A DNA stretch of 64,000 nucleotides from Candidatus Acidiferrales bacterium (GCA_035933575.1 DASYYR010000071.1:6994-70993); one strand, 5' to 3'; shown: positions 42,739 to 56,392, counted from the first letter of the stretch. Translations and numbers: made by a program. The notes: generated by a model not told the origin, from the letters alone.

Positions 42739-43974
42739 CTAAGGGTGCAGTGCGGGTTTCTTACGTTCTAGTACTGGAGTAGTGCTCAGCGCGATCATCC
42801 CCAAAAAGACTAGTCCGTTCGCCGGAATGTGGAGGTTGAAGTCCACAAGACTATGCACCGCCATGCCGGCGCATGCGGTTACTCCGGCGGCGTGTATCGC
42901 CTTGGAAAAAGACGTTTGCTCCCGGACGAGGCGCATTCTAGCCTCGCGAAGCCACAGCAGGAGGAAAGCCAGCGCGCAAATCCCGCCCACGATGCCAGTT
43001 TCGGCTAAGGCTTCAACATAGTCGTTGTGAGCGTGATCCACGATTTTTCCGTCATAGTAAGGTTCATAACGGGGATACACAGCAACCAGAGTGCCAAGCC
43101 CGCAACCGATGAGTGGGTGAGCCAAAAATACATGCCACGTTCCTTTGAGCATGGTTACGCGGCGATTCGCGGTGAGTTCGTCGGCGTGGCTACTAAAACG
43201 ATCCAAGATGCGATTGGTTCCCAACCAACCCACTGCAAGCAGGGCCGCCAGCAACACGATTGCAAAAGGCACCATCTGCGACTTTTTGGAACGCGCAACG
43301 TAGACGATCAGCGCAAGAACGCCTACTTCAAAGACGAAGCTCACGATCCCGCCGCGGGAACCCGTCAGCAGCAATGCAGCAATCGGCGCCACGGTCAGTA
43401 TACCGACGAATGGCATTTGCTCCGTGCGTACGCCACGGAACAGGACTAGCGAAAGACCGACGGGCGCGAGAAGCTCCATCAATCCCGCAAAATCATTGCG
43501 ATTTACGTATGGACCAAACGGATTGCCTCCGTTCGTCAACGGCCGATACCAGTACAGCACATAGTGGGACGTAAAATTCTGCGCAATACCGAACACGGCG
43601 ACACCAAACGCAAAACACATTAAAAACCATGTTAAAAATCTCAAGTCGCGCGGATTGTGAAACGCTTGGCCAATTAAGAAAAACAGCAGCGAACAAGCGG
43701 ATATCTTCAACAGTGCAACACTGGTGAGAAATGGATACGCAGTCGCTCCGAACGCCAGCTGCAACATCGCAATTCCGAGGAAAGCTAAAAGAGGCCAATA
43801 GATAGGGCTCCAATGCGTTTCGATTTCGCGATTGTGACAGATCAGAATCGCCCACCATAGAAAAAGAAGGGCCGCACCGGCTTCCAGAATGGATTCCGAC
43901 CAGATCTCAACCGTGCCGAAGGCCAGAACGCTGAACACGATCAGCAGGCAGATTCCTATTCGAAGAAGTCTCAT
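42739..43974 (-). CDS. O-antigen ligase-like (Wzy_C) membrane protein
   Basis: 411 aa and polytopic, with the LLTGSRGGIVSF Wzy_C motif. Confidence 0.75.
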   Translation of the reverse strand: MRLLRIGICLLIVFSVLAFGTVEIWSESILEAGAALLFLWWAILICHNREIETHWSPIYWPLLAFLGIAMLQLAFGATAYPFLTSVALLKISACSLLFFLIGQAFHNPRDLRFLTWFLMCFAFGVAVFGIAQNFTSHYVLYWYRPLTNGGNPFGPYVNRNDFAGLMELLAPVGLSLVLFRGVRTEQMPFVGILTVAPIAALLLTGSRGGIVSFVFEVGVLALIVYVARSKKSQMVPFAIVLLAALLAVGWLGTNRILDRFSSHADELTANRRVTMLKGTWHVFLAHPLIGCGLGTLVAVYPRYEPYYDGKIVDHAHNDYVEALAETGIVGGICALAFLLLWLREARMRLVREQTSFSKAIHAAGVTACAGMAVHSLVDFNLHIPANGLVFLGMIALSTTPVLERKKPALHP

Positions 43975-45275
43975 AACGAAGGGTGGTTAGACTGCGCCGC
44001 CTCTGGGACCATTGTGACGTCATCAATCCAGATCGCGCCGCTAATTTTATTATCGAATAAACGACTGGGAAAACGAACTAGTCGAACTTCAAGAAAATGA
44101 GTGTTCGGGCTGGTTGTGACTTTCGCGCGCAGCGCGGTCCACGGCATCGTTCCCACAATGTTCGGAGTCAACACGTAGACATCGCGCTCGTGCCGCGGAT
44201 CGAAGAGCTCAAAGTGGAGCCCGCTGTCCGTGGAAATAGACTCAGTGCGCACATAGGCCTGAAAGTCGTAAGTAGTATCCGGTCGAGCTGGTTCAATCTG
44301 CTGCACGTGAGCAAAATCCATATTTACGCCGCCGGTGAAACCTACACGCAGAGATTGCGAACCAGAATGATAAACGGAAGAATCGGTGCTGATATACGCT
44401 CCCGGAAGCTGCTGAAAGCGCCAATCGAGGCCGCCATTCGCTATTGGGGTCTCGAATCCTCCATTCCAGACAATGGAATCATCCATGGGCGTCGCAACGG
44501 GCCAGCGTGACGCTTCGAGCGCTTCGTGCCATACGCGTCGCGCGTCATCGGCGCGATCCTCAGCAATCAGTTCATCCAGTAATGGAAATGTCCTTCTGAT
44601 TTCAATGACCTGCCGGCGAGAGAGCGCAACAATTCGCTTCCAGGCTTCGAGCGCGTCTTGTGTTTCATGAATGCCTAGAAAAAAATCCAACGCTGTAAGA
44701 TCGGCGTCTTCATTTGCCGGAAGAACGCTGCCAAGAATCAAATTCACATCTGGATCAAAATTCCAAACACTTCGTATCGCCAATGGTGTCAGGCTCGGAT
44801 CATTCAGGAGGGCTCGATGGATTTCCGAAAGACCTTGTGTCGCCTGGCCCTGACGAAGAAGAAAATTTCCATACTTCCATGCGACGTCCGCGGAAATCGG
44901 ATAATCGCGCTTTGCGTTTTCGTACGCTTCCTGTGCGTGCGAGACATCTCCCGTGGCTTCGTACGCATTTGCCAGCGCAATCCAATGTGACGCGGACAAA
45001 GGATTTATGCGCACTGCGCGGAGGTAATAGGATATCGCGAGGCTCGGGTTGGTTTCATTGAGAGAGAACTGTGTGGACTCACCTAGTCGCGCCCACGCCT
45101 CAGCATTTCCGGGAACCAATTCGGCCGCACGAATTTGCTTAGCAGGTTGTCCTGAGTTTTCCCAATACCAAGCCAAACTCAGCTTGCCCGCTTGATAAAT
45201 CATCGTTGCTGAAACTGCCACGGCCAAGCAAAGGATCGCCCATCGTCTGCCGGAACCTTCGAAATTCGACCCCAC
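43971..45275 (-). CDS. Membrane-anchored TPR-repeat protein with C-terminal CBM_4_9-like carbohydrate-binding domain
   Basis: GTG start and one N-terminal TM. TPR-like repeats (AWARLG.., IALANAYEATGDVSHAQEAYENA). C-terminal NGGFE...W beta-sandwich signature. The stop overlaps the next start (ATGA). Confidence 0.6.
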   Translation of the reverse strand: MGSNFEGSGRRWAILCLAVAVSATMIYQAGKLSLAWYWENSGQPAKQIRAAELVPGNAEAWARLGESTQFSLNETNPSLAISYYLRAVRINPLSASHWIALANAYEATGDVSHAQEAYENAKRDYPISADVAWKYGNFLLRQGQATQGLSEIHRALLNDPSLTPLAIRSVWNFDPDVNLILGSVLPANEDADLTALDFFLGIHETQDALEAWKRIVALSRRQVIEIRRTFPLLDELIAEDRADDARRVWHEALEASRWPVATPMDDSIVWNGGFETPIANGGLDWRFQQLPGAYISTDSSVYHSGSQSLRVGFTGGVNMDFAHVQQIEPARPDTTYDFQAYVRTESISTDSGLHFELFDPRHERDVYVLTPNIVGTMPWTALRAKVTTSPNTHFLEVRLVRFPSRLFDNKISGAIWIDDVTMVPEAAQSNHPSL

Positions 45276-45366
45276 GATTTTGTAATCTGCTATGAAGCCG
45301 ACTTGATACGCAAGGACAAAATTGAAGGCATCGCTGTACGGGCCGGCAGCCGGACAGATGAGAATT

Positions 45367-46365
45367 TCATCTGAGGTTGCGAGCGAGATCTTCGCAAACT
45401 AAGTCATACAGCCGCCCTAATTGCGCAGTAGAATCGCGGGCGACCAGGTTGCGAATCGGTAGAGACTCCGCGATTTGGCCCAGTACGCGAAATTCTTGAG
45501 CTCGCATCGTCGTGTCAAGAATCGTGTTGCCGTAGGTATTGGCCACCAGACTCATCAGAGCGGCCTGGGGAGGGAGAGCCTCGATAAAAGGCGCGCGTGA
45601 ATCGCCCGAACGATTTGCCAATATATAAATCGCTGCCAGCGGAAGTGCTTCGCGTTCCAATCGCGAACCGCTGCCTTCTAATGGCACGCGAAGCTTATCC
45701 ACCGCAGGCATTTCAGAGACCGGCTTATCCTCCCCGGTAAGCATGTACACCGTCTCCGGCCAGAGATTCAGATAAGGAAAAGCGGGAAGAACACAGAAGG
45801 AACGTCCGCGCTCAACGAGGGAAGCGATATCGTCCGACAGAATGGAATGGCCTCTTCGTGCAAACAATGCAGCAGTGGTCGATTTCCCAGCGCCCGGCAC
45901 ACCGACAAACGCTATCGCTTTGCGTTTGAATGCAACTGCGCTCGCATGCAGGCATATGACTCCGCGGAGACGCAGCACAACCCCGAGCACTGGGCCGAGT
46001 AGAAAATCGGCGACGTCATTCTGCTCCATCGGCTTCTCCATGGGCGCGGCGCAGCGTATGCCGATGTTGGTCAAGCTGGCATTCAGGTAGAACGTGAGAC
46101 CATGGCTATAGTGGATCCTATATCCCCCGTCATTATTTCGTTTCCAGATTTTCAGGGCCGGATGGCCGTTCTCGTCGCAGATCTCGCTCACATACCAAGG
46201 CGTTTCTTCCGCGGCGTCCTGCGCGGACTGTACTTCGTCCGCGTCAAAGTTTACCGAGACATCCTGGGGAGCGTCTGGGGTTGATTCGACTGGATCAAGT
46301 CTGGGAATAGGTTGGTTGGACGCTAACCGAAGGCCGTAAATAACGTAAGAATAGGGCCACTTCAC
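45367..46365 (-). CDS. HPr-kinase-like (HprK C-terminal domain-type) P-loop kinase, lasso-cluster associated
   Basis: The P-loop is FVGVPGAGKSTTAALFARRGHSILSDD. The GTG start overlaps the stop of precursor ORF A2 (ccGTGAag). Confidence 0.7.
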   Translation of the reverse strand: MKWPYSYVIYGLRLASNQPIPRLDPVESTPDAPQDVSVNFDADEVQSAQDAAEETPWYVSEICDENGHPALKIWKRNNDGGYRIHYSHGLTFYLNASLTNIGIRCAAPMEKPMEQNDVADFLLGPVLGVVLRLRGVICLHASAVAFKRKAIAFVGVPGAGKSTTAALFARRGHSILSDDIASLVERGRSFCVLPAFPYLNLWPETVYMLTGEDKPVSEMPAVDKLRVPLEGSGSRLEREALPLAAIYILANRSGDSRAPFIEALPPQAALMSLVANTYGNTILDTTMRAQEFRVLGQIAESLPIRNLVARDSTAQLGRLYDLVCEDLARNLR

Positions 46366-46493
46366 GGAAACCTCGTCTTGTGTTGTCTACTCCTGCCCGC
46401 GTCAGGTGCACCTGTGTGCCCCACCTTTTGCGTCAGGTCCTTGACGGTTCCATGAATAATTAAGACAGGAGACTTGTATGGTTTCTTCGACAC
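46362..46493 (-). CDS. Lasso peptide precursor A2 (43 aa; not in supplied ORF track)
   Basis: The hand translation is (V/M)SKKPYKSPVLIIHGTVKDLTQKVGHTGAPDAGRSRQHKTRFP*. The leader fits YxxPxLx3Gx5Tx exactly. It is a tandem paralogue of A1. Confidence 0.65.
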   Translation of the reverse strand: MSKKPYKSPVLIIHGTVKDLTQKVGHTGAPDAGRSRQHKTRFP

Positions 46494-46600
46494 GCGGCAA
46501 ACAATCAGGTTGGTTGATCGTACTAAAAACTCTGCATCCGGCTTCGTCGTGAAACCGGGCTTCTTAGGAAGATACGACGAATCTAACGGTGATAAAGACT

Positions 46601-46753
46601 CTAAACCCTTGTCTTGATACGGCCCCTCCCACCCCCAACGTCAAACGTGCCGTGCGATCCAACGTTGCGGGTCAGGTCTGCAACCGTACCATGAACGATC
46701 AAGACAGGAGATTTATATGGCTTCTTCGACACATCAGACCTTGCCGGCTGCAT
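46601..46753 (-). CDS. Lasso peptide precursor A1 (50 aa from ATG 46753, or 43 aa from GTG 46732; not in supplied ORF track)
   Basis: The hand translation is MQPARSD(V)SKKPYKSPVLIVHGTVADLTRNVGSHGTFDVGGGRGRIKTRV*. AGGTGG lies 6 nt before the ATG. The leader fits YxxPxLx3Gx5Tx. Confidence 0.65.
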   Translation of the reverse strand: MQPARSDVSKKPYKSPVLIVHGTVADLTRNVGSHGTFDVGGGRGRIKTRV

Positions 46754-46800
46754 GGTCTACCACCTCATGAATTCTATACTAATTCGGTAGCACGACCGCA

Positions 46801-46829
46801 ATCATAAAGTTTTCGGGCGCCTCGAACAA
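46801..46829 (-). promoter_or_regulatory. Candidate sigma70-type promoter for the precursor genes (TTGTTC-17 nt-TATGAT)
   Basis: On the minus strand the -35 TTGTTC is at 46829-46824 and the -10 TATGAT at 46806-46801, about 45 nt upstream of A1. This is a pattern match only. Confidence 0.2.
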
Positions 46830-46895
46830 ACAACGCTACTACATTTACGGGCCGTGTTCACCTCGAAAATTCAACGACTGCGGCGCGCGTTGCTT

Positions 46896-48746
46896 CTAGT
46901 CGCTCAACGTTGGCTTTGCAGAAAGCGACAACAGCCAGAAGTTGAGACAAGCGGGATTTATTTTCAGTTCTGCTTCTTCCTCGTTCATATCTGGCCGCAA
47001 CAACGACGCCGGGCTCCCATTAATATAATGCTTTAACTGGTGGGCGGGTTGCATTTTGACCAGGGGTTCTGTCTCGTCGCACTTCAGAGCTGCAAGTAAG
47101 GGGTGAAAAGGGGATGGAGTCTTCGGCCTCAATCGTATTGCCTCGGGCAGCCTTCCGCGCATCGTTTCGCGCAGCAGGTACTTGCGGAAGAACCATGGCA
47201 TCGAGGGTAAGGCTAGAAGAAAGTTCACCAACCGGAGGTCCAGAAACGGATACCGGACCTCAACCGGTTGATGTGTTGTACCAGGATTTTCCATCCGAAA
47301 CAGGAAATCCCATTGAGGCAAGAAAAGCGAGGCATAGCCTCGAGGATGGCGTGGATGAGTGTTCCAGGGAAGGTTGTCGAGTGGGCTACTCCAACGAGCC
47401 TGGAGATTGAAGCGGGCTGCCAGATCGGGCTGTATCCAGTCAGGAAAGGACGCGCGGGATTCGCGCGGCGAAAACAAGCGTCGCATTCTGCGCAAAGGGC
47501 CTCGAAGACCATCGGGCGCCTGGAACCTGCGCAAAACGTGCTCAGCCAAATCCGCAAGCGCTCGACCGGAACGCCCTTCGCGCCAAAGGTGGCTAAGGTG
47601 CTGTATCATCTCAAACTCCATCAAATTGTCGATACCTTCTCCGGAAAACAAGACGTTCACTTTAGCCGCAATCGCTTTGAATTCGCCCGTCAGAGTGCTC
47701 GGGAAGGGGTACGCAATCGGTTCGGGCCAGTGCATATTGGGATCGTCCCAGCCGTCAAGGATTCCCACGCTGTCGACCACCGAAAAATGAAGCGGAATCT
47801 GAAAAGCAGAAGCCACGGCGCGGGCAGCGCTTGGGTCACTGTCAGATGAAACGTTCTGATGGATCGACGTAAACGCGTGCAGTTCCAACGCTGGGTATTT
47901 TTCTTTATGCAATTCATGAGCCACAGCCGCGACACTTGAGGAATCGAGCCCGCCACTTAGAAGAATTCCGGCTTTGTTCGTCCGCAGCCGGTCTTCGACG
48001 GCGCTCTTAAATAGTTCACCAAAGTGTTCAATGTATTCGCGACGCCGCTGATAGTGAATCGCGCCGTCCGTGGGCGGACGCCAGTACTCTCGCAAATAGA
48101 TCCCGGAATGCGACCATCGAAGAAAGTGCGCGCGCGGCAGGCGGTGGATGTCGGCAAATGAAGTTGAGGCGGGATCATAATTCATCCCGAAAAGAAGGAA
48201 ATCCGCGATCGCTGCATCATTCAACCGATCGGAAACTGGGGGATGAAGGCGGAGGCAATCAAGTGTGTTGCTAAAGATAAAGGAATGGTCAACTTCAGCG
48301 AAGTAAAAAGGCCTGATGCCGAAATGATCGCAAGCGCAAAAAAGCTGGGCGCGCTTTGCGTCCCAAATGGCGAACGCAAAATCCCCGAGGAGGTGATCGA
48401 GACACGCCTCACCCCATGCCTCATAAGCGTGGAGGAGCAATTGAGGATCCGCATCGGAAAGGTTGACTTCCCTGCCGCTCGAACGAAGGGCATCGACGAG
48501 TTCTCTTCGGGCGTCGAGACGCGCATCTGCCACGATCCAGGTGCGCCCGTCGAGGGTTGCCGGCTGGCGTTCAGGCTCGGAATTGTTCGCATGAGAAAGA
48601 AGCGCGTGACCCAGCCCGACAGGACCGTCGGTCCAAATTTCCTGCGCGTCCGGTCCGCGGAAGGACAGCCAGTTCGTCATCCGACGCAACAGATCGGAAT
48701 CGACTGGCCTACCATCCGAGTAGGCTATGCCGACAATCCCACTCAT
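46896..48746 (-). CDS. Lasso peptide isopeptide-bond-forming cyclase (Asn-synthetase-like, C protein)
   Basis: The N-terminus is MSGIVGI, with Ser replacing the glutaminase Cys. The PP-loop is LLSGGLDSSSVAAVA. 616 aa. The start overlaps the B2 stop (ATGA). Confidence 0.85.
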   Translation of the reverse strand: MSGIVGIAYSDGRPVDSDLLRRMTNWLSFRGPDAQEIWTDGPVGLGHALLSHANNSEPERQPATLDGRTWIVADARLDARRELVDALRSSGREVNLSDADPQLLLHAYEAWGEACLDHLLGDFAFAIWDAKRAQLFCACDHFGIRPFYFAEVDHSFIFSNTLDCLRLHPPVSDRLNDAAIADFLLFGMNYDPASTSFADIHRLPRAHFLRWSHSGIYLREYWRPPTDGAIHYQRRREYIEHFGELFKSAVEDRLRTNKAGILLSGGLDSSSVAAVAHELHKEKYPALELHAFTSIHQNVSSDSDPSAARAVASAFQIPLHFSVVDSVGILDGWDDPNMHWPEPIAYPFPSTLTGEFKAIAAKVNVLFSGEGIDNLMEFEMIQHLSHLWREGRSGRALADLAEHVLRRFQAPDGLRGPLRRMRRLFSPRESRASFPDWIQPDLAARFNLQARWSSPLDNLPWNTHPRHPRGYASLFLPQWDFLFRMENPGTTHQPVEVRYPFLDLRLVNFLLALPSMPWFFRKYLLRETMRGRLPEAIRLRPKTPSPFHPLLAALKCDETEPLVKMQPAHQLKHYINGSPASLLRPDMNEEEAELKINPACLNFWLLSLSAKPTLSD

Positions 48747-49213
48747 TTTTGTGCAACCATCTTGCCGGTGACAGGACCCGCGAAAGGCGCATATCGAGTC
48801 TGTACGTCGTCCGAGTCATTGATCGCGCGCCCGGCGACCTCAATCCACGCGTGAGCTTCTAACTGATTGCCAATCTTCCTTGCGCCAATTCGCAATTGCG
48901 CCGGAATTCCCCGCCGTCGAAGTAGCCAGCACAACGCAATCGAACGGGAAAGGCAGTTTCCGCGAACGACACCGCGGCGGGAGGCAGCATCCAGCATGCG
49001 GCTGGCAGACTGAGACTCGGTGAAGATCCGGGTGGCATCACGCTGATTCGTCAAGACAGCGCTGCCGTGCCATTTTTCCGAGGCCTGCTGAATGCGTCGA
49101 AACGTGGATACGCGCAACCAGATCACCACAACTGGAAGGAATAGCAATCCCAGAAAAAAATCTCGGCGCTCCCGGCCGGAGAGATTACAAAAGCGCACCC
49201 AAGTAGCATTCAT
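48743..49213 (-). CDS. Lasso peptide leader peptidase B2 (transglutaminase-core family)
   Basis: RGNCLSRSIALCWLLRRRGIPAQLRIGAR...LEAHAWIEVAGRAINDSDD gives the Cys/His/Asp arrangement of lasso B2 proteins. 156 aa. Confidence 0.85.
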   Translation of the reverse strand: MNATWVRFCNLSGRERRDFFLGLLFLPVVVIWLRVSTFRRIQQASEKWHGSAVLTNQRDATRIFTESQSASRMLDAASRRGVVRGNCLSRSIALCWLLRRRGIPAQLRIGARKIGNQLEAHAWIEVAGRAINDSDDVQTRYAPFAGPVTGKMVAQK

Positions 49214-49330
49214 CGCGTTTACCGTAGCCGCGCTTGGCTCCTTGTTACTATAGATGCGATGACCGCAGAAAAGCGCTTAATACGGAGCACATCAGAATTG
49301 TTTCCGGCAATAATTTGTGGCCGCGAAGCT

Positions 49331-49645
49331 TCAGGGAGAATCACCAGTCAACTCCACTAGGCCCTCACGAAGCAATTTTTCAAGCAGGGCGCGTAGATCG
49401 CTTTCGGCTTGCTGCGGAGTGACATCGTATTCCTCGACGATCACGTCGCGAATCGCACTCATGTTCGTGGGTTGCTGGAGCAACTGCCAAATCCGCGCTC
49501 CGACGGGATCCAATCCATAATAGACACTGTTCTTCATGTTGAGGATGGCCGCCTCATCGCCCAGTTCGCACGAAACCTGCTGCTTCGTTGCCACGAGAAT
49601 CGCATCGTTGGTGAGGTCGCTGTTCATCGAAACCTTCCCGAACAT
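49331..49645 (-). CDS. PqqD-family RiPP recognition element (lasso B1)
   Basis: AILNMKNSVYYGLDPVGARIWQLLQQPTNMSAIRDVIVEEYDV...LLEKLLREGLVEL is a canonical PqqD-like sequence. About 100 aa. Confidence 0.85.
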   Translation of the reverse strand: MFGKVSMNSDLTNDAILVATKQQVSCELGDEAAILNMKNSVYYGLDPVGARIWQLLQQPTNMSAIRDVIVEEYDVTPQQAESDLRALLEKLLREGLVELTGDSP

Positions 49646-49808
49646 GAATAGAGGGTAGCCGTATATTCTTCAGTTCAACATCAAGAGCAGTAGGATCGCA
49701 ACCCTTAGAGATTGCGTGAAGACGACTGCGTAATTCTACTTGGATTTGCCGCGGCCGGGCAACGCCGAACTGGATTCCGAACGGCAAGTTCGGTTATAAA
49801 GACAATCC

Positions 49809-50618
49809 GTGGCCGCGGACGCGATCATCGTTCGAAATCTCGAGAAATATTTCCCGCCTTCCTATTCGGGGTGGCGGGCCCTGATGCAGCCAGTAGCACG
49901 TCTTACGCTGCGAGCGCTGGCAGGAGTTTCGCTCTCTGTCGAGCGGGGAGAAGCCGTCGCGCTGATTGGCGAAAATGGCGCTGGCAAATCCACGCTGCTT
50001 AGAGTGCTGGCCACTTTAATTGTGCCGTCGCGCGGGCAGGCCGAGATTTTCGGTTGCGATGTAGTAAGAGATGGAGCGGGCGCGCGCAGGCAACTTGGCT
50101 ATTACACCAGCGGCGACGAGGGATTTTATGGACGCTTGACTGGACGCGAGAATCTGCGTCTGTTCGCGACAATGAATAATTTAACGCGTCGTGAAGCGTC
50201 GCGGAGAATTGACGAGCTGGCAGAATTGCTGGGCATGAACGAGATATTGGACCGGCAGTCGCGCACCTATTCGACAGGCATGTTGCAGCGATTGGGCCTC
50301 GCGCGGTCTCTTCTACACGCGCCGGCAGTGCTACTTCTCGACGAGCCTACGCGCAGCCTTGATCCCTTGGCGGCGGCCGAGTTTCGCCGTTTCCTCAAAA
50401 ACGACATCGTGAGCCGGCTTGGGACGACGCTGCTCTTTGCCTCTCACACGCTCGGCGAAGTTGAAGAGATGGCAAGTCGAGTTGTATTACTTGCCGAAGG
50501 GCGCATCCTCGCATTCGATACTCCGCGCAATCTGTGTGGACGGACAGGCGCGGCCCATTTACAGGGAGCTCTCGAACGCCTGGCGGGACCGTTTTCCTCG
50601 ACGGAACGTAACGGATGA
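49809..50618 (+). CDS. ABC transporter ATP-binding protein
   Basis: GTG start. Walker A GENGAGKST, signature YSTGMLQRL and Walker B LLLDEP. Confidence 0.85.
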   Translation: MAADAIIVRNLEKYFPPSYSGWRALMQPVARLTLRALAGVSLSVERGEAVALIGENGAGKSTLLRVLATLIVPSRGQAEIFGCDVVRDGAGARRQLGYYTSGDEGFYGRLTGRENLRLFATMNNLTRREASRRIDELAELLGMNEILDRQSRTYSTGMLQRLGLARSLLHAPAVLLLDEPTRSLDPLAAAEFRRFLKNDIVSRLGTTLLFASHTLGEVEEMASRVVLLAEGRILAFDTPRNLCGRTGAAHLQGALERLAGPFSSTERNG

Positions 50619-51436
50619 ACATGCGCCTTACGATTGAAAAGTTGTGGGCCTTTTTTCGCCGTGACCTTGCGATTGCACGCGGCTATCGCAGCGCCTTTAT
50701 TTTGGAAGCTTGCGAGGCGTTGTTTGGTGTCGCCACGTTTTACTACCTTTCGCGATTCGTCGAGAGCCCTCAACTCTCGAGCGCCCTTCCGCAAGGAGGC
50801 AGCTATTTCGCATTTGCGTTGATCGGCTTTGCCTTCTTCGATTATCTGGGCGTGGCCTTCAATGCATTTGACTCAAGCCTCGAGGAGGCGCGTCAGAATC
50901 GCACGCTCGAAGCATTGCTCGTGACACAAACTTCGCTTCCCATCACGCTGCTGGGTTCCGTAATCTATCCGTTCGTTCTGACGTCCTTACGCACTGTGGT
51001 GTATCTCGGATGGGGAGTTCTCTTATTCGGGTTTTCGGCCCGCTCAGCAAACTGGCTTGGCGCGATACTGATCCTGCTGGCTTCAATCCTGGCGTTTGCC
51101 GGCCTGGGAATTTTCTCGACCAGCTACACGCTGCTATTCAAACGCGGCAATCCGGCAAAATGGATTCTTCTGGGGCTTTCTGGATTTCTCGGCGGGACGA
51201 TGTATCCGGTTTCGATTTTGCCGAAATACTTGCAGGATGTCGCGCGATTGATTCCGATCACCTATTCGCTGGAGGGTATGCGCGCCGCGCTGCTCGGCGG
51301 AGCACCGCTTCGCCTGTTGTGGCCTTCGATCGTTGCTTTGATGGTCTTTGCGGCAATTTTATTACCGCTGTCCTTTTTCACGTTTGCGTGGGCGCTGCGC
51401 CGGACAAAAATCACCGGAACACTCACGCATATCTAG
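50615..51436 (+). CDS. ABC-2 type transporter permease
   Basis: The start overlaps the ATPase stop (ATGA). 6 hydrophobic segments. 273 aa. Confidence 0.8.
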   Translation: MNMRLTIEKLWAFFRRDLAIARGYRSAFILEACEALFGVATFYYLSRFVESPQLSSALPQGGSYFAFALIGFAFFDYLGVAFNAFDSSLEEARQNRTLEALLVTQTSLPITLLGSVIYPFVLTSLRTVVYLGWGVLLFGFSARSANWLGAILILLASILAFAGLGIFSTSYTLLFKRGNPAKWILLGLSGFLGGTMYPVSILPKYLQDVARLIPITYSLEGMRAALLGGAPLRLLWPSIVALMVFAAILLPLSFFTFAWALRRTKITGTLTHI

Positions 51437-51472
51437 CTATGAATGAAAAACGGCTGGCACAGCGGAACGTTT

Positions 51473-52321
51473 TCAGTCGAAGAAACGATATCGCAAAATG
51501 GCATAGAGCGTCACCACGCCGTCGCGCCAAGTGATTTTCTTGCCTTCCTCGTACGAGCGGCCCGCGTAAGAAATCGGGACTTCGTAAATTCGCCATCGTG
51601 CCTTGGCCACGCGCGCCGTTACTTCCGGCTCGAAGCCGAAGCGATTCGAGCGCAGGCGCATGCCTCGAATGACCTCCTTGCGAAAAACCTTGTAGCAGGT
51701 CTCCATGTCGGAAAGGGTTAAATTGGTGACAATGTCTGAAAGCAGCGTCAAGAACTTGTTGCCGACGTAATGCCAAAAAAAGTGGACGCGCTGCGGTCCG
51801 CCCAGGAACCTGGACCCGTAAACTACGTCAGCTCGTCCGTCGAGGATGGGCTCGATCAGTTTGGCGTATTCACGCGGGTCATATTCGAGATCAGCATCCT
51901 GAACGAGAAGAATATCGCCACTCGCCTCGGCGAAGCCTCGCCGCAGTGCGGCGCCTTTCCCTTGGTTGTGTTCCTGAAATAGAAAATGGATGTTGCTCAA
52001 GGGCAAACGCGAGCGTCCCCCGAGAATTTCCGCCTCCGTTTCGCCGGCTTGCTGAAGGCGGTGCATCTCGGTCAGCCATTCACGAGTCCCGTCGGTGGAC
52101 CCATCATCAACGACCACAATTTCATGCGCGACGCCAACTGCCTGTACGCGCCGCAGAATCTCCTCGATGAACGCCCGCTCGTTATAGGCAGCAATGATCA
52201 CGGAAACGGTCACGGGAACTTTGCTGTCCGCATTTGCGTCGAATGCCGCCTGGGCCGTGGCAGGCCGGCGCTCCTGTTCAGATGTGCGAGAAGGAACCAT
52301 GGGTACTTGCTCACTCCGCAT
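51473..52321 (-). CDS. Glycosyltransferase family 2, polyprenyl-phosphate sugar synthase-like (DPM1/ArnC-type soluble form)
   Basis: VSVIIAAYNERAFIEEIL...VVVDDGSTDGT and VQDADLEYDP motifs. The C-terminus is KITWRDGVVTLYAILRYRF. Confidence 0.75.
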   Translation of the reverse strand: MRSEQVPMVPSRTSEQERRPATAQAAFDANADSKVPVTVSVIIAAYNERAFIEEILRRVQAVGVAHEIVVVDDGSTDGTREWLTEMHRLQQAGETEAEILGGRSRLPLSNIHFLFQEHNQGKGAALRRGFAEASGDILLVQDADLEYDPREYAKLIEPILDGRADVVYGSRFLGGPQRVHFFWHYVGNKFLTLLSDIVTNLTLSDMETCYKVFRKEVIRGMRLRSNRFGFEPEVTARVAKARWRIYEVPISYAGRSYEEGKKITWRDGVVTLYAILRYRFFD

Positions 52322-52378
52322 GAAGAGATTAACACGAGGGGTTCCACGTCACATATCGGAAGCGAATTTGCCGGTATT

Positions 52379-52434
52379 GGGTCAGTTTGAATTTTGACTC
52401 TTTGTGGCACGATCAAGAAAATTCAAACTGACCC
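52379..52434. repeat. Perfect 17-bp inverted repeat (GGGTCAGTTTGAATTTT ... AAAATTCAAACTGACCC) with 22-nt spacer in a divergent intergenic region
   Basis: Read directly. The left arm 52379-52395 is the exact reverse complement of the right arm 52418-52434. Confidence 0.9.
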
Positions 52435-52490
52435 ACCACCGATTTGCCTTCTCGATTGCGCGCCGGGGCCGGAAAAAGTAAAGTTGAACG

Positions 52491-53609
52491 GTGAAGACTC
52501 TGATGAAAGTGCCCTATTTCGATTTAAAAGCTCAGTATAACGGGTTGCGGGAAGAAATTCTCGAAGCGCTCGACCGCGTTTGCCGCAACGCATCGTTCAG
52601 CCTGGGCGACGAAGTAGCCGCGTTCGAAAAGGAATTCGCGGCGTACTGTGAAGCGAAACATTGTATCGCGCTAAATTCAGGGACCAGCGCGCTGCATTTG
52701 GCGCTGCTGGCCGCGGGGATCGGGCCAGGCGACGAAGTCATCACCAGCCCGAATACGTTCATTGCCACAGCTGAAGCAATCGCTTACACAAACGCAAAGA
52801 CCGTGTTTGTGGACATTGACCCGCTGAATTCGAACATAGATCCACAACTGGTGGAGCGTGCCATCACGGCGCGCACCAAGGCGATACTGCCGATTCACCT
52901 CTACGGCCGACCGGCCAACATGGACGTGCTCGAAGGGATTGCGCACTCGCATAAAGTGGCACTCATCGAAGATGCTTGCCAGGCCCACGGCGCGCGATTT
53001 CGCGGGCGGCGCGTCGGCGCTTTAGGCAACTCGGGCGCGTTCAGTTTCTACCCGTCGAAGAATCTGGGAGCGTATGGCGAGGCGGGGGCGTTGGTCACTA
53101 ACGATGAGCGCATCGCCGACTATTGCCGCGCGGCGCGAAGCCATGGAGAAGCGCACCGGTATTTCCACGATTTCATCGGCTACAACTACCGCATGGAAGG
53201 TTTTCAAGGTGCAGTGCTGCGCGTGAAGTTGCGCCACCTGGACGATTGGTCGGCGAGTCGAAAGGTGCTTGCGCAACGCTACCGCGAGCAACTTGGCACC
53301 GCCCGCCTCGACATGCCACAAGACGACCCGCGCGACGAATGCGCGTATCACTTGTTTGTGGTTTACGTCGATAACCGTGATTCCGTGAAGCAGCAACTTG
53401 AAGAACGCGGCATAGGGACAGCTGTGCATTACCCGCGGCCCTTGCATTTGCAAAAAGCCCTGGCGAATCTGGGATACCGCGCCGGCAATTTCCCTCATGC
53501 TGAACGTGCGTGCGAACGCGCCCTCGCATTGCCTTTCTTTCCGGAGATGACCGAGGAGCAGGTGGATTATGTCGCGGATTCGATAATGGAAATCACTGGC
53601 AAACGATAA
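52491..53609 (+). CDS. DegT/DnrJ/EryC1/StrS-family sugar aminotransferase (ArnB/WecE-like)
   Basis: VPYFDLKAQY N-terminus and FSFYPSKNLGAYGEAG PLP-Lys motif. Start is GTG 52491 or ATG 52503. Confidence 0.85.
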   Translation: MKTLMKVPYFDLKAQYNGLREEILEALDRVCRNASFSLGDEVAAFEKEFAAYCEAKHCIALNSGTSALHLALLAAGIGPGDEVITSPNTFIATAEAIAYTNAKTVFVDIDPLNSNIDPQLVERAITARTKAILPIHLYGRPANMDVLEGIAHSHKVALIEDACQAHGARFRGRRVGALGNSGAFSFYPSKNLGAYGEAGALVTNDERIADYCRAARSHGEAHRYFHDFIGYNYRMEGFQGAVLRVKLRHLDDWSASRKVLAQRYREQLGTARLDMPQDDPRDECAYHLFVVYVDNRDSVKQQLEERGIGTAVHYPRPLHLQKALANLGYRAGNFPHAERACERALALPFFPEMTEEQVDYVADSIMEITGKR

Positions 53610-53665: not shown

Positions 53666-56392
53666 TCAGGCGGAGGCGCGCCGTTCCAGGCTTTTATCCT
53701 CGCCAGACGGCGGTGCCGGCGCATTGCGGGATTCAGTGAAAGTGCCCAGGAGTTTCTCCTTCATCGCCTGCGCCAATCCATCGAATACATCGATGCATGC
53801 TTTGCGCATCGCGTCTTCGGCACCGCGAATTAGGGAATCCATGCGTTTCTGGTTCAATGCGTCAAGCTGGTTCACGGTTGCATCGAGCCAGGAGTTTCCC
53901 GCAGAGCGAAGCCGATCCTCATGGCGCTCAAGCTCTTCAGCTCCCAATCCTTCTTGTTTCGCAGACCATTCCGCGAGTTGAGTTTTACCCTGTTCCCGGA
54001 ACACGTCGAGTGTGGCGCCAAGCTGCGATGCGAGGCTCTCGTTCGATTGTGCCAGGTTTCGGTCCGTCGTCATTGCGAGCTGTTCTTGAAAGTGACTAAA
54101 CGAAGTCTGTGCGCGCGCTTGCAGGCTATGCAAGACTTGCTCGGCTGCATCCTCCAGCCGCTTGCGCTCCTGTTCGCTTCGGACATTGCTTTCAGCAACG
54201 GCATGCTCGGCCGCATCTTCCGCCGCCGCTTGTATCCTTTGCTCAAAGGTTCGCGCGACTCCCTCCGCCGTTTCCTCAAATTGGTTCTTCGCTGCGTCAA
54301 CTTGCTTCTGCGAAAGCGCTCCAAAGAGCTCAGCGGTGATCTTCAGCTGAGAAGCTTCGATTTTCCCAAGGTGCGTGCGATATTTTTCCGTCGCTTTCGC
54401 GGCCACTTCATCGATGCCTCTCCCTGCATTATTGACAGAGTCTTCCATGCGCGCGTCCAGCCGTGAAAAACTGCGTTGCAACTGTTCTTCGCACGCTTTT
54501 GCGAGCCCAACCGAGGCTTCCCCCGCCATTCGCGCCGTATTCGCCTGAAGTTCCTCGACCCACTTCGCAGAAACCTGTCTGCCTGCAAGCTCGAAATCGC
54601 TCTGCAAACCCGTGAGCATCGATGACATATTTTCCGTTGCTTCTTGCTGCAAATGCGCAGAAGCCTGCCGCAACCGCTCACGGTGAATGTGTAGAAGTTC
54701 TTTCGCCTGCTCTTCGTGAACGGACAGTTGCCGCGTGGCCTCAGCCGCCTTTTCCAAAACTGGAGCAATCCTTGCATCGATTTCGCCAGCCGTTTGTTCC
54801 ACTCTCTGCTTGCTCATTTCCGTCAACCGTGATTCGGCACACTCCATCGAACGTTTTTGCAGTTCAGCCGCCCGCCGATCCAGTTCCGCAACCCGCGATG
54901 CGACGTCCGATTCCAGACGCTGACGCAATTCATTCAAACTGTCCCGACTCGCCGCTTCGAGCTGTCTGGAATATTCGGAGAAGTGCGTCGCAGCGTTTTC
55001 GATTTCCGTCAAAGAAGTTTTCGTGCGGGCTATTTCTTGACCGAGCGCGCTCTTCACCTCATCAAGCGCAGCGCGCGCGGTTTCGATACTGAGTCCGGAA
55101 TCCTGCTGGAGATCTGCGACTCGCGCCGCCACTTTTTGCTCGGCGGCTTGCAATATTTGTTGAGAGCTGTCGGTAACACGGCCGACGAGCCTTTGTGCGG
55201 CGCTATCGATCGAGGATTCGAGAAGGTCACTCCACTGTGTCTGAGCGCGAGCCATTTCCTCTTGCAGATGCTGACGTACTCTCTCCCGGATTGCCAGCAT
55301 CTCTACGGCATTCCCTTGCTCAAGAGCAATCTGGTGTTCCGCGCGCGATCCCAGTTCCTTTCGGATCTCATCGAGCTGCTGTGACAGTTTTTCCTCGAGA
55401 CGCCGCTGCGCCTGGCCCGCAACTTCTTCGGAAACGGTGCGCACTTCCCCGCGCAAATCTTCCACACGGCGTTCCCATTCCAAAAGTGCGGCTTGGGTTC
55501 GCTCGATTGCCTCGCCCCATGAAGTGTTCAGGTTTTCGTGAACCTCCTGCCTCGCCTGGGCCACCTGGGCGATTAACCTCCGCGTCAAATCCGAAGAAAT
55601 CTGTTCCCTCGCAGATGACTCCCGACCTTCGAATTCCTGACGCCATTTTTCATAGAAGGCCTCCGCCGTGGCGCGATGTTCCTGATTCAACTGATTATGC
55701 AGTTCGCCCCTGAGGCTGGTGGCGCGTTCGTCAACTACTTGCTCGGCAACCTCTCGCGCTTTTTCAACCGCTTTCTGTGCCTGAAATTCGAATTGATGAC
55801 GAAGCTCTCGCAGGAGAGGGCTTTCCTCAATATTGAGCTCGGTCGCCTGTTCCGCGCTGCTGGGGGAAGACTGACGGCCGGAGCTGGCAAGCAAATCCTC
55901 CAAGTAAGAAGCGAGAGGGCCCTCTTGCGGGACTACTTCCATCGCGCTCACAACTTTTTCTGTGACGTCTGCGCCAGGATGGGTCGCGGAGCTTACGTCC
56001 GCCGTCTCCATGCCCTCGATGCTACTGCTCACCCAGTCCACCGGAGGGAGCGCGACACCCCAGACGTTGCTGCCCATTTCCAGTTCGACACCAACTTGAA
56101 ACAACTCACGCAAAGTACGGGGTCTCTGGATCCAGGTGACACGCGCGCGGGTGTTGAGTTGTTCCCTCTGTCTCTGTCCGGCAGGGACCTCGATGGTAAT
56201 CCAGGTGTTTTTCGGGAGGTGGTGCTTGGAGGCGTAGCGGCAACCGTGGAAGCTGAGGCTTTGCGTCGACGTTCGCTCTTCAAACGGCTGCCCTAACAAA
56301 TCCGTGCCGCGAATGATTATTGGCAGCGTCTGTTCAATACGGGTGCTCCGCCGTCGTTGCTCTCCCAAGTAGGTAGAAGCTGCCTGCGCCAC
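53666..56392 (-). CDS. PilZ-domain protein fused to ~770-aa alpha-helical/coiled-coil region
   Basis: GTG start. The N-terminus has RRRSTR (RxxxR), then SLSFHG about 30 aa later (near-canonical D/NxSxxG). The rest is Ala/Glu/Gln/Arg-rich with no Cys-rich or TM regions and has an apolipoprotein-like composition. Confidence 0.6.
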   Translation of the reverse strand: MAQAASTYLGEQRRRSTRIEQTLPIIIRGTDLLGQPFEERTSTQSLSFHGCRYASKHHLPKNTWITIEVPAGQRQREQLNTRARVTWIQRPRTLRELFQVGVELEMGSNVWGVALPPVDWVSSSIEGMETADVSSATHPGADVTEKVVSAMEVVPQEGPLASYLEDLLASSGRQSSPSSAEQATELNIEESPLLRELRHQFEFQAQKAVEKAREVAEQVVDERATSLRGELHNQLNQEHRATAEAFYEKWRQEFEGRESSAREQISSDLTRRLIAQVAQARQEVHENLNTSWGEAIERTQAALLEWERRVEDLRGEVRTVSEEVAGQAQRRLEEKLSQQLDEIRKELGSRAEHQIALEQGNAVEMLAIRERVRQHLQEEMARAQTQWSDLLESSIDSAAQRLVGRVTDSSQQILQAAEQKVAARVADLQQDSGLSIETARAALDEVKSALGQEIARTKTSLTEIENAATHFSEYSRQLEAASRDSLNELRQRLESDVASRVAELDRRAAELQKRSMECAESRLTEMSKQRVEQTAGEIDARIAPVLEKAAEATRQLSVHEEQAKELLHIHRERLRQASAHLQQEATENMSSMLTGLQSDFELAGRQVSAKWVEELQANTARMAGEASVGLAKACEEQLQRSFSRLDARMEDSVNNAGRGIDEVAAKATEKYRTHLGKIEASQLKITAELFGALSQKQVDAAKNQFEETAEGVARTFEQRIQAAAEDAAEHAVAESNVRSEQERKRLEDAAEQVLHSLQARAQTSFSHFQEQLAMTTDRNLAQSNESLASQLGATLDVFREQGKTQLAEWSAKQEGLGAEELERHEDRLRSAGNSWLDATVNQLDALNQKRMDSLIRGAEDAMRKACIDVFDGLAQAMKEKLLGTFTESRNAPAPPSGEDKSLERRASA

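Follow-up and report, generated by a model that had tools for sequence, protein, structure and literature searches.

A two-precursor, kinase-bearing lasso peptide gene cluster as a probable accessory cassette in a polysaccharide locus of a Candidatus Acidiferrales bacterium

Acidobacteria dominate many soils, and to our knowledge no lasso peptide from this phylum has been characterised so far. This study concerns a 64,000-nucleotide (nt) stretch of DNA from Candidatus Acidiferrales bacterium (GCA_035933575.1, DASYYR010000071.1:6994-70993; hereafter the window) and, within it, a lasso peptide gene cluster at positions 45367-51436 that adjoins the genes of an exopolysaccharide (EPS) export system. 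Gene coordinates were taken from the open reading frame (ORF) listing of the 64-kb window, and families were assigned by hidden Markov model (HMM) searches with Pfam and NCBIfam. On the minus strand, the cluster runs from the recognition element (B1) for a peptide that is ribosomally synthesised and then modified after translation (RiPP) and a leader peptidase (B2) through a cyclase (C) and two small precursor genes (A1 and A2) to a kinase gene (K), and an ATP-binding cassette (ABC) transporter pair is encoded divergently (Table 1).

Table 1. Features of the lasso peptide cluster and of the start of the adjoining EPS operon, in positions of the window
Feature	Position	Strand	Evidence
ABC-2 type permease, putative lasso peptide exporter/immunity subunit	50615-51436	+	PF01061 7e-16, PF12698
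ABC transporter ATP-binding subunit, DrrA-like	49809-50618	+	PF00005 8e-30; TIGR01188 drrA 1.6e-58, below cutoff
B1/ABC divergent intergenic region, promoter-like site for lasso operon	49646-49808		consensus match
B1, PqqD-type RiPP recognition element	49331-49645	-	PF05402 4e-18, 65.9 bits (cutoff 23.4)
B2, transglutaminase-like leader peptidase	48743-49213	-	PF13471 3e-23, 82 bits (cutoff 26)
C, Asn-synthetase-like lasso cyclase (macrolactam synthetase)	46896-48746	-	PF00733 5e-31, 108.9 bits (cutoff 21)
Precursor A1, 50 aa	46601-46753	-	lasso leader models NF033521, NF033528
Precursor A2, 43 aa	46362-46493	-	lasso leader models NF033521, NF033528
K, HprK/PEPCK-fold kinase, predicted to phosphorylate the linear precursor	45367-46365	-	TIGR04352, PF07475, BsfK homology
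Conserved 41-nt motif ATTTTGTCCTTGC-N12-CTTCATAGCAGATTAC	45282-45322	-	alignment of 18 loci
TPR + CBM_4_9 membrane protein; its gene opens the TPR/Wzy/Wza/Wzc/epimerase/methyltransferase operon	43971-45275	-	TPR families, PF02018

Pfam and NCBIfam agree in placing the three core proteins in the lasso B1, B2 and C families, as an initial annotation made from the sequence alone had proposed. Its coordinates for these genes, the motifs NCLSRS, EAHAW, SGGLDSS and MSGIVG and the overlap of B2 and C by ATGA were all found again in the ORF listing or directly in the sequence, and the hmmscan check that it suggested returned PqqD, Transglut_core3 and Asn_synthase matches with the E-values given in Table 1. 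B2 exceeds the cutoff of NF033537 lasso_biosyn_B2 (86.3 bits, cutoff 33) and contains the Cys/His pair, with the Cys in GNCLSRS and the His in EAHAW. The top NCBIfam match of C is the lasso cyclase model NF033535 (353 bits), ahead of TIGR01536 asparagine synthase (233 bits) and TIGR03108 (187 bits); the protein has an SGGLDSS PP-loop and starts with MSGIVG, without the glutaminase Cys2. B1 and B2 are 27% (E 6e-12) and 36% (E 4.5e-8) identical to BsfB1 and BsfB2, respectively. The stop of A2 and the start of K overlap by GTGA, which together with the ATGA overlap of B2 and C suggests translational coupling.

The split exporter described in the initial annotation was likewise matched by HMM as an ATP-binding subunit and an ABC-2 permease, the genes of which overlap by 4 nt and diverge from B1. 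The top NCBIfam matches of this pair are of the DrrA/DrrB type, all below cutoff, and no Wzt_C domain was found with Pfam or NCBIfam. The permease remains beside B1 in two loci (L003/L004) despite a replaced far flank (GT2/DegT), and is missing in four relatives in which the lasso genes are kept (L008, L016, L018, L091). In the region between B1 and the transporter genes, a promoter-like TTGCCC-18 nt-TAGAAT on the minus strand (49762-49733) agrees with the consensus at 9 of 12 positions; this is a consensus match only, and the regional count of such sites is not above that in shuffled sequences. Shortly after the A1 stop (46525-46558, minus strand) lies an 8-bp GC-rich hairpin, followed 8 nt later by UUUUU; it is not distinctive (z = -1.4) and could serve as a weak attenuator that raises the precursor-to-enzyme ratio.

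The precursor genes occupy a stretch (46366-46895) in which the initial annotation saw no ORF of 60 aa or more, so that automatic annotation would leave it empty. The former is correct for the minus strand, but the plus strand holds a 72-aa ORF (46589-46807) that is antisense to A1 and surely spurious; the latter is what the gene caller did in L001, the closest metagenomic relative. Both small ORFs are lasso precursors by their scores with NF033521 lasso_leader_L3 (22 bits for A1 and 19.4 bits for A2, cutoff 19), and both match NF033528 (3e-6 and 2e-6, respectively). The A1 leader ends in SKKPYKSPVLIVHGTVADLTR and is followed by the predicted core NVGSHGTFDVGGGRGRIKTRV, and the A2 leader MSKKPYKSPVLIIHGTVKDLTQ is followed by the predicted core KVGHTGAPDAGRSRQHKTRFP. 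A GAGGTGG Shine-Dalgarno sequence precedes the ATG of A1. A1 is conserved in L001, L010 and L011, and the copies of A2 are nearly identical in the same three loci.

Conservation was assessed in 86 unique precursors from about 80 loci, with 80 canonical cores. Tyr at -17 and Pro at -14 occur in all 86 leaders, and Leu or Ile at -12 and Thr at -2 in 84 each, in line with the Y-17/P-14/L-12 spacing rule (PMC10368454). An Asp lies exactly 11 residues past Thr(-2), which is core position 9, in 80/86, and both window precursors retain every conserved position (Y-17, P-14, L-12, T-2, D9). Core residue 1 is variable (K, T, A, N, R and others), and the core Gly is mostly at position 3, moving to position 4 in several precursors while the Asp holds at 9. 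The fixed distance between Asp and Thr(-2) points to a nine-residue ring from the variable residue 1 to Asp9. A product of about 2 kDa, as given in the initial annotation, implied a seven-residue Gly1-Asp7 ring instead, and this was rejected: the Gly is present in only 62 of the 86 precursors, Pro, Arg, Met or Leu takes its place in some, and in several it shifts to position 4, with the Asp still at its fixed spacing from Thr(-2). With the nine-residue ring, A1 and A2 are predicted to have monoisotopic masses of 2151.14 Da and 2284.21 Da, respectively, to which phosphorylation would add 79.97 Da; the alternative core start gives 1938.03 Da and 2057.04 Da. The cores have 19-24 residues, are cationic and contain no Cys; those of the window end in ...KTRV and ...KTRFP and have Gly at position 3. 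Of the 80 canonical cores, 79 carry a Thr among their six C-terminal residues; it occupies position 18 in 58 cores and directly follows Lys or Arg in 55. Thr18 is the only conserved hydroxyl of the core, and no Ser is conserved across the 80 cores.

Library HMM matches of the kinase are weak (TIGR04352 at 1e-8, Hpr_kinase_C PF07475 at 0.005). A family profile built from 14 kinase sequences aligned with the HprK/P structures 1jb1 and 2qmh (E 4e-6) over a region spanning the P-loop GVPGAGKST and the SDD motif (catalytic Asp-Asp), and the fold matches of an AlphaFold2 model (pLDDT 83) were PEPCK and HprK/P. For comparison, bsfK was translated from PMC10368454, and the window kinase was found to be 37% identical to BsfK over 148 aa (E 5e-15). 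Profile, fold and homology agree with the earlier call of an HPr-kinase-like gene after the precursors. As BsfK is an experimentally validated lasso-precursor kinase (PMC10368454), the window kinase is predicted, by analogy, to phosphorylate the linear precursor. The acceptor of the HprK-like RiPP kinases known so far is either a C-terminal Ser (PMC8498205) or Ser3 (PMC10368454; PMC13381572), and the window cores have neither. The conserved Thr18 is a candidate acceptor, reasoned from its conservation but uncertain; phosphorylation of a Thr, if confirmed, would extend the range of acceptors known for kinases of this type.

Homologues of the kinase number more than 2,900, mostly in metagenome-assembled genomes (MAGs) of Candidatus Acidiferrales/Acidoferrales. 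Scanning species-representative genomes with the kinase yielded 80 loci, to which the window proteins were mapped by tblastn; the nearest genome locus (L010) has 92% kinase identity, and no public contig matched the cyclase sequence exactly. B1-B2-C-A-K is the standard order, found in about 75 loci, including those of cyanobacteria, Blastocatellia and Pyrinomonadaceae, and throughout the mapped loci a conserved lasso precursor and the kinase come after C. Three traits had initially been singled out as unusual, namely, precursors downstream of the cyclase, a kinase tailoring gene, and an adjoining EPS operon. All three exist in the window, but the gene order is the rule in this family, kinase-bearing lasso clusters are an established class (PMC8498205), and the neighbourhood of polysaccharide genes has a precedent in Bacilli (PMC13381572), with the gap of 91 nt as one state of a spacer that varies from 88 to 8,293 nt. 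An NTP_transf_5 nucleotidyltransferase (N), present in 17 related loci, was not detected in the window by tblastn with the N protein of L090.

In several relatives, only C-A-K is present, and no B1 or B2 was found within 10 kb by HMM search (L032, L035, L040, L051, L057/L090, L089; also L029, L072 and L074). These relatives belong mostly to the genus Acidiferrum, and the trio mostly diverges from TPR/Wzy/Wza/Wzc, with NTP_transf_5 nearby. Lasso synthesis independent of leader and peptidase has a reported precedent in pseudomycoidin (PMC6993621).

On its downstream side, the cluster borders an EPS export operon. A gap of 91 nt (45276-45366) separates the kinase gene from the TPR gene, after which HMM searches identified Wzy_C, Wza/Poly_export, Wzc, epimerase/dehydratase and methyltransferase genes; both the coordinates and these families match the co-directional TPR/Wzy/Wza/Wzc operon of the initial annotation. 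The upstream flank carries GT2 and DegT genes and a gene for a PilZ coiled-coil protein. A 908-aa protein that begins with a PilZ domain and contains an extended coiled coil of apolipoprotein-like type is encoded at 53666-56392 (minus strand), is conserved at the locus edge in many relatives, and may be a cyclic di-GMP-responsive part of the polysaccharide system.

Linkage was counted in 37 acidobacterial species-representative loci that extend 8 kb or more to either side, and a TPR/Wzy block within 10 kb was scored as linked. This was the case in 24 loci, in 20 of which the block is co-directional and downstream of the kinase (spacer 88-8,293 nt) and in four of which it is divergent and upstream; it is absent in 13. 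None of four loci from other phyla has the link, and L068, which is cyanobacterial, has housekeeping genes on its flanks. Conversely, the TPR-CBM family has 949 homologues, all of the Acidiferrales type, and in a reciprocal test lasso genes were found directly upstream in three of four TPR-CBM relatives at 48-55% identity.

One relative, L092, keeps the synteny of the window (DinG-QueE-QueC-TPR-PilZ-DegT-GT2 | TPR-Wzy-Wza-Wzc) around a spacer of 290 nt (L092 9711-10000) at the place where the window has 6.2 kb (45276-51472). The spacer still encodes B1 residues 2-32 (E 1e-4) and continues straight into what lies ahead of the TPR gene in the window. It is a deletion scar, left where the lasso cluster was lost from an otherwise intact locus, and the missing block nearly coincides with the boundaries initially given to the cluster (45367-51436). 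Since the EPS operon is intact in L092, the lasso module is taken to be an accessory cassette rather than a required EPS component. When 18 loci were aligned, a conserved 41-nt element that reads ATTTTGTCCTTGC-N12-CTTCNTAGCAGATTAC (window 45322-45282) emerged directly upstream of the TPR gene. It stops 6 nt short of that gene's GTG start codon and is kept whatever precedes it, be it the kinase gene, an outer membrane protein gene, or GT2 as in L092. It is the boundary element of the EPS operon and likely the operon's own promoter or operator, and its distance of 6 nt from the GTG raises the possibility of a leaderless or near-leaderless EPS transcript. The motif occurs once in the window and is thus not an operator common to the lasso promoter; it has no Rfam match, and an Rfam scan of 45000-52500 was empty.

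Among characterised systems, the paeninodin-like clusters (PadeK, ThcoK, SyanK; pseudomycoidin PsmK/PsmN) have in common with the window the split B1/B2, an Asn-synthetase-like cyclase, an HprK-like kinase acting on the linear precursor, and an ABC exporter. Those of Bacilli often lie inside loci for capsular polysaccharide (PMC8498205, PMC13381572), and a role in biofilms has been speculated in a 2026 report (PMC13381572). The window differs from them in that its precursors have Thr18 after Lys/Arg instead of a C-terminal Ser, that NTP_transf_5, frequent but not universal there, is missing, that the exporter is a split DrrAB-like ABC-2 pair instead of a fused MsbA-like pump, and that the host is a member of the Acidobacteriota with Gram-negative Wza/Wzc machinery. 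Kinase, B1 and B2 are also homologous to those of the bsf cluster of Bradymonas sediminis (BsfA/B1/B2/K; PMC10368454), the precursor of which has the same Y-17/P-14/L-12 spacing; BsfA, however, has Ile(-2), Gly1-Asp8 and phospho-Ser3, whereas in the window family residue 1 is variable, Thr(-2) and Asp9 are found instead, and Ser3 is missing. Phosphorylated lasso precursors in Acidobacteriaceae have been noted in silico (PMC10368454). The cyanobacterial family of NF033528 (lasso_cyano) and NF033535 (lass_lactam_cya) provides the top NCBIfam models for the window precursors and cyclase, with window scores below cutoff. Its B1-B2-C-A-K order (L068, L087, L048) is that of the window, but its loci lie outside polysaccharide loci and carry genes for a methyltransferase resembling protein arginine methyltransferases (PRMT-like), a fused ABC pump and NTP_transf_5 after K. 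The window gene set is also that of the soil-metagenome biosynthetic gene cluster (BGC) 44.1 (and of 40.1; PMC9064862), which is the same cluster type: the permease (822 bp), ATP-binding subunit (810 bp), B1 (315 bp), B2 (471 bp), C (1851 bp) and A (153 bp) genes of the window are at most 12 bp off those of BGC 44.1 (822, 810, 303, 471, 1863 and 150 bp, respectively). The acidobacterial BGC 44.1 was cloned from soil in 2022 and no product was obtained; kinase, EPS context and precursor logic were left unannotated in that study (PMC9064862).

Taken together, 45367-51436 is read here, with a probability of about 0.8, as a complete and probably functional class II lasso cluster (cores free of Cys) of the kinase-bearing, paeninodin-like branch that forms an accessory cassette in a polysaccharide locus. 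In the proposed mechanism, B1 would bind the YxxPxL leader motif of the two ribosomal precursors, and the HprK-like kinase would phosphorylate the still-linear precursor before folding, by analogy with PadeK and BsfK, most likely at Thr18/19 in the C-terminal [K/R]-T-x-x as the sole conserved core hydroxyl. B2 would then cut after T(-2)-x(-1), and the cyclase would adenylate Asp9 and join it to the new N-terminal amine. The expected product has a nine-residue ring and a cationic 12-residue tail (about 2.15-2.36 kDa), and the divergent ABC-2 pair may export it or protect the producer. The cassette has the GT2 gene on one side and the TPR/Wzy/Wza/Wzc operon on the other, in a locus conserved across Candidatus Acidiferrales, where the EPS operon seems to be under its own upstream control element and does not need the lasso cluster in order to persist.

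Several observations weigh against this reading. We know of no product observed for any member of this subfamily. B1 stays under the cutoff of NF033536 lasso_PqqD_Bac (6e-18, 65 bits, cutoff 80) and C under that of NF033535 (353 bits, cutoff 525), scores to be read in the light of both being clade-specific 'exception' models. No Shine-Dalgarno sequence is visible before the A2 start, and a core residue 1 as variable as here is atypical for lasso cyclases. Thr as acceptor is placed in doubt by LppK, which does not accept an S3T substitution (PMC13381572). Lastly, a terminator scan and folding revealed no convincing intrinsic terminator in the 91-nt gap (z = -0.6), which makes read-through into the EPS operon possible.

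The missing terminator would also suit a lasso peptide that is integrated with polysaccharide biogenesis, as a phospho-Thr glycan acceptor or primer, a matrix component, or a signal tuning Wzc/Wzy-dependent export, in one functional unit and possibly one transcript. We consider this unlikely. The adjacency is found in 24 of the 37 acidobacterial loci, occurs in two orientations and holds over kinase identities of 42-92%, and the divergent type retains only C-A-K beside the TPR gene, but the linked loci all belong to a single order, so that common ancestry can account for much of the pattern, and the link is absent in the other 13 and in all four loci from other phyla, with L068 among housekeeping genes. 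Between K and the TPR gene, L094 has genes for an NTP_transf_5-methyltransferase fusion and a 2-oxoglutarate-dependent oxygenase, yet the spacer is variable in length and carries unrelated inserts, and the 41-nt motif accompanies the TPR gene whether or not the lasso genes are there. B1 through K are deleted in L092 beside an intact EPS operon, and the L092 TPR protein occurs on many contigs. Also in favour of integration, kinase-type lasso clusters of Bacilli are independently embedded in capsular polysaccharide loci (PMC13381572) and pseudomycoidin is phospho-glycosylated (PMC8498205). Functional coupling to EPS is unproven, partly contradicted by L092, and doubtful. A wider, equally tentative proposal is that kinase-type lasso peptides are a surface-polysaccharide accessory across phyla (Acidobacteria, Bacilli), acting in glycan assembly or in matrix/biofilm control, e.g., through sugar attachment to phospho-Thr, and not as free antimicrobials.

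Against the accessory, probably functional cassette, it could also be argued that the cluster is a decaying remnant without product, on its way to loss as in L092. Partial decay is seen in relatives: L002/L003 have a split cyclase, L008 has lost or truncated ABC genes, L093 has a shortened B2, and in L092 the whole cluster is deleted; in the window, however, all eight ORFs are full length, the P-loop, SDD, SGGLDSS and Cys/His catalytic motifs are intact, the overlaps are conserved, and neither precursor deviates at a conserved position, which makes decay highly unlikely. The possibility that the lasso call is over-interpreted, and that C and the ABC-2 pair are polysaccharide genes of a common kind, encoding an amidotransferase of the exosortase type and an exporter like Wzm/Wzt, is more remote still. 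C does match TIGR03108 (XrtA/PEP-CTERM amidotransferase) at 7e-55, but with 186.9 bits against a cutoff of 816.9 and behind the lasso cyclase model; it has MSG instead of MCG at its N-terminus, i.e., no Cys2, and it always precedes a lasso precursor and a kinase, so its reading as an Asn synthetase or EPS amidotransferase was rejected. Glycan export is frequent among ABC-2 transporters, and the pair adjoins GT2 and DegT, but it stays with B1 in L003/L004, where that flank is replaced, and the related locus L094 has a separate Wzt_C-type ABC pair elsewhere. An HPr-rel-A system (TIGR04352/TIGR04353/TIGR04355) was rejected on the scores with the models for its kinase A, kinase B and PqqD-family chaperone (34.4, 24.5 and 25.4 bits, with cutoffs of 200, 200 and 35, respectively) and on the presence of one kinase gene only, and a SynChlorMet system was ruled out by scores and missing partner genes.

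The window adds to the known kinase-type systems a second phylum with lasso/polysaccharide co-localisation, a Thr-type precursor logic and a natural deletion control. It offers a complete two-precursor cluster with explicit predictions, namely, Asp9 as ring residue, the masses given above and phospho-Thr18 as a candidate. The second phylum is unrelated to the first, and the capsule/biofilm question raised for Bacilli becomes testable in a Gram-negative setting, for which L092 serves as a control.

Relatives of the window vary further in what follows the kinase gene. In many of them (L028, L031, L034, L041, L045 and others), an Ig-repeat protein of about 1,100-1,200 aa is encoded some 1.3-4.6 kb downstream; in L090 it has DUF7948/SBBP/ASH-type domains. 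This protein, not encoded in the window, explains the spacers of about 5 kb before the TPR gene. Outside Acidiferrales, the kinase gene is followed by genes for a PRMT-like protein, a fused ABC pump and NTP_transf_5 (L068 11007-15224), and ORF sizes like those of this block were seen in L087, L085, L060, L061 and L073. This set of genes suggests extra tailoring, perhaps at the conserved Lys/Arg adjoining the Thr. Finally, L060 (5275-18505), from a MAG labelled Deltaproteobacteria, has a single kinase gene surrounded by three homologues of the cyclase and two copies of B1 and looks like a compound or duplicated lasso locus.

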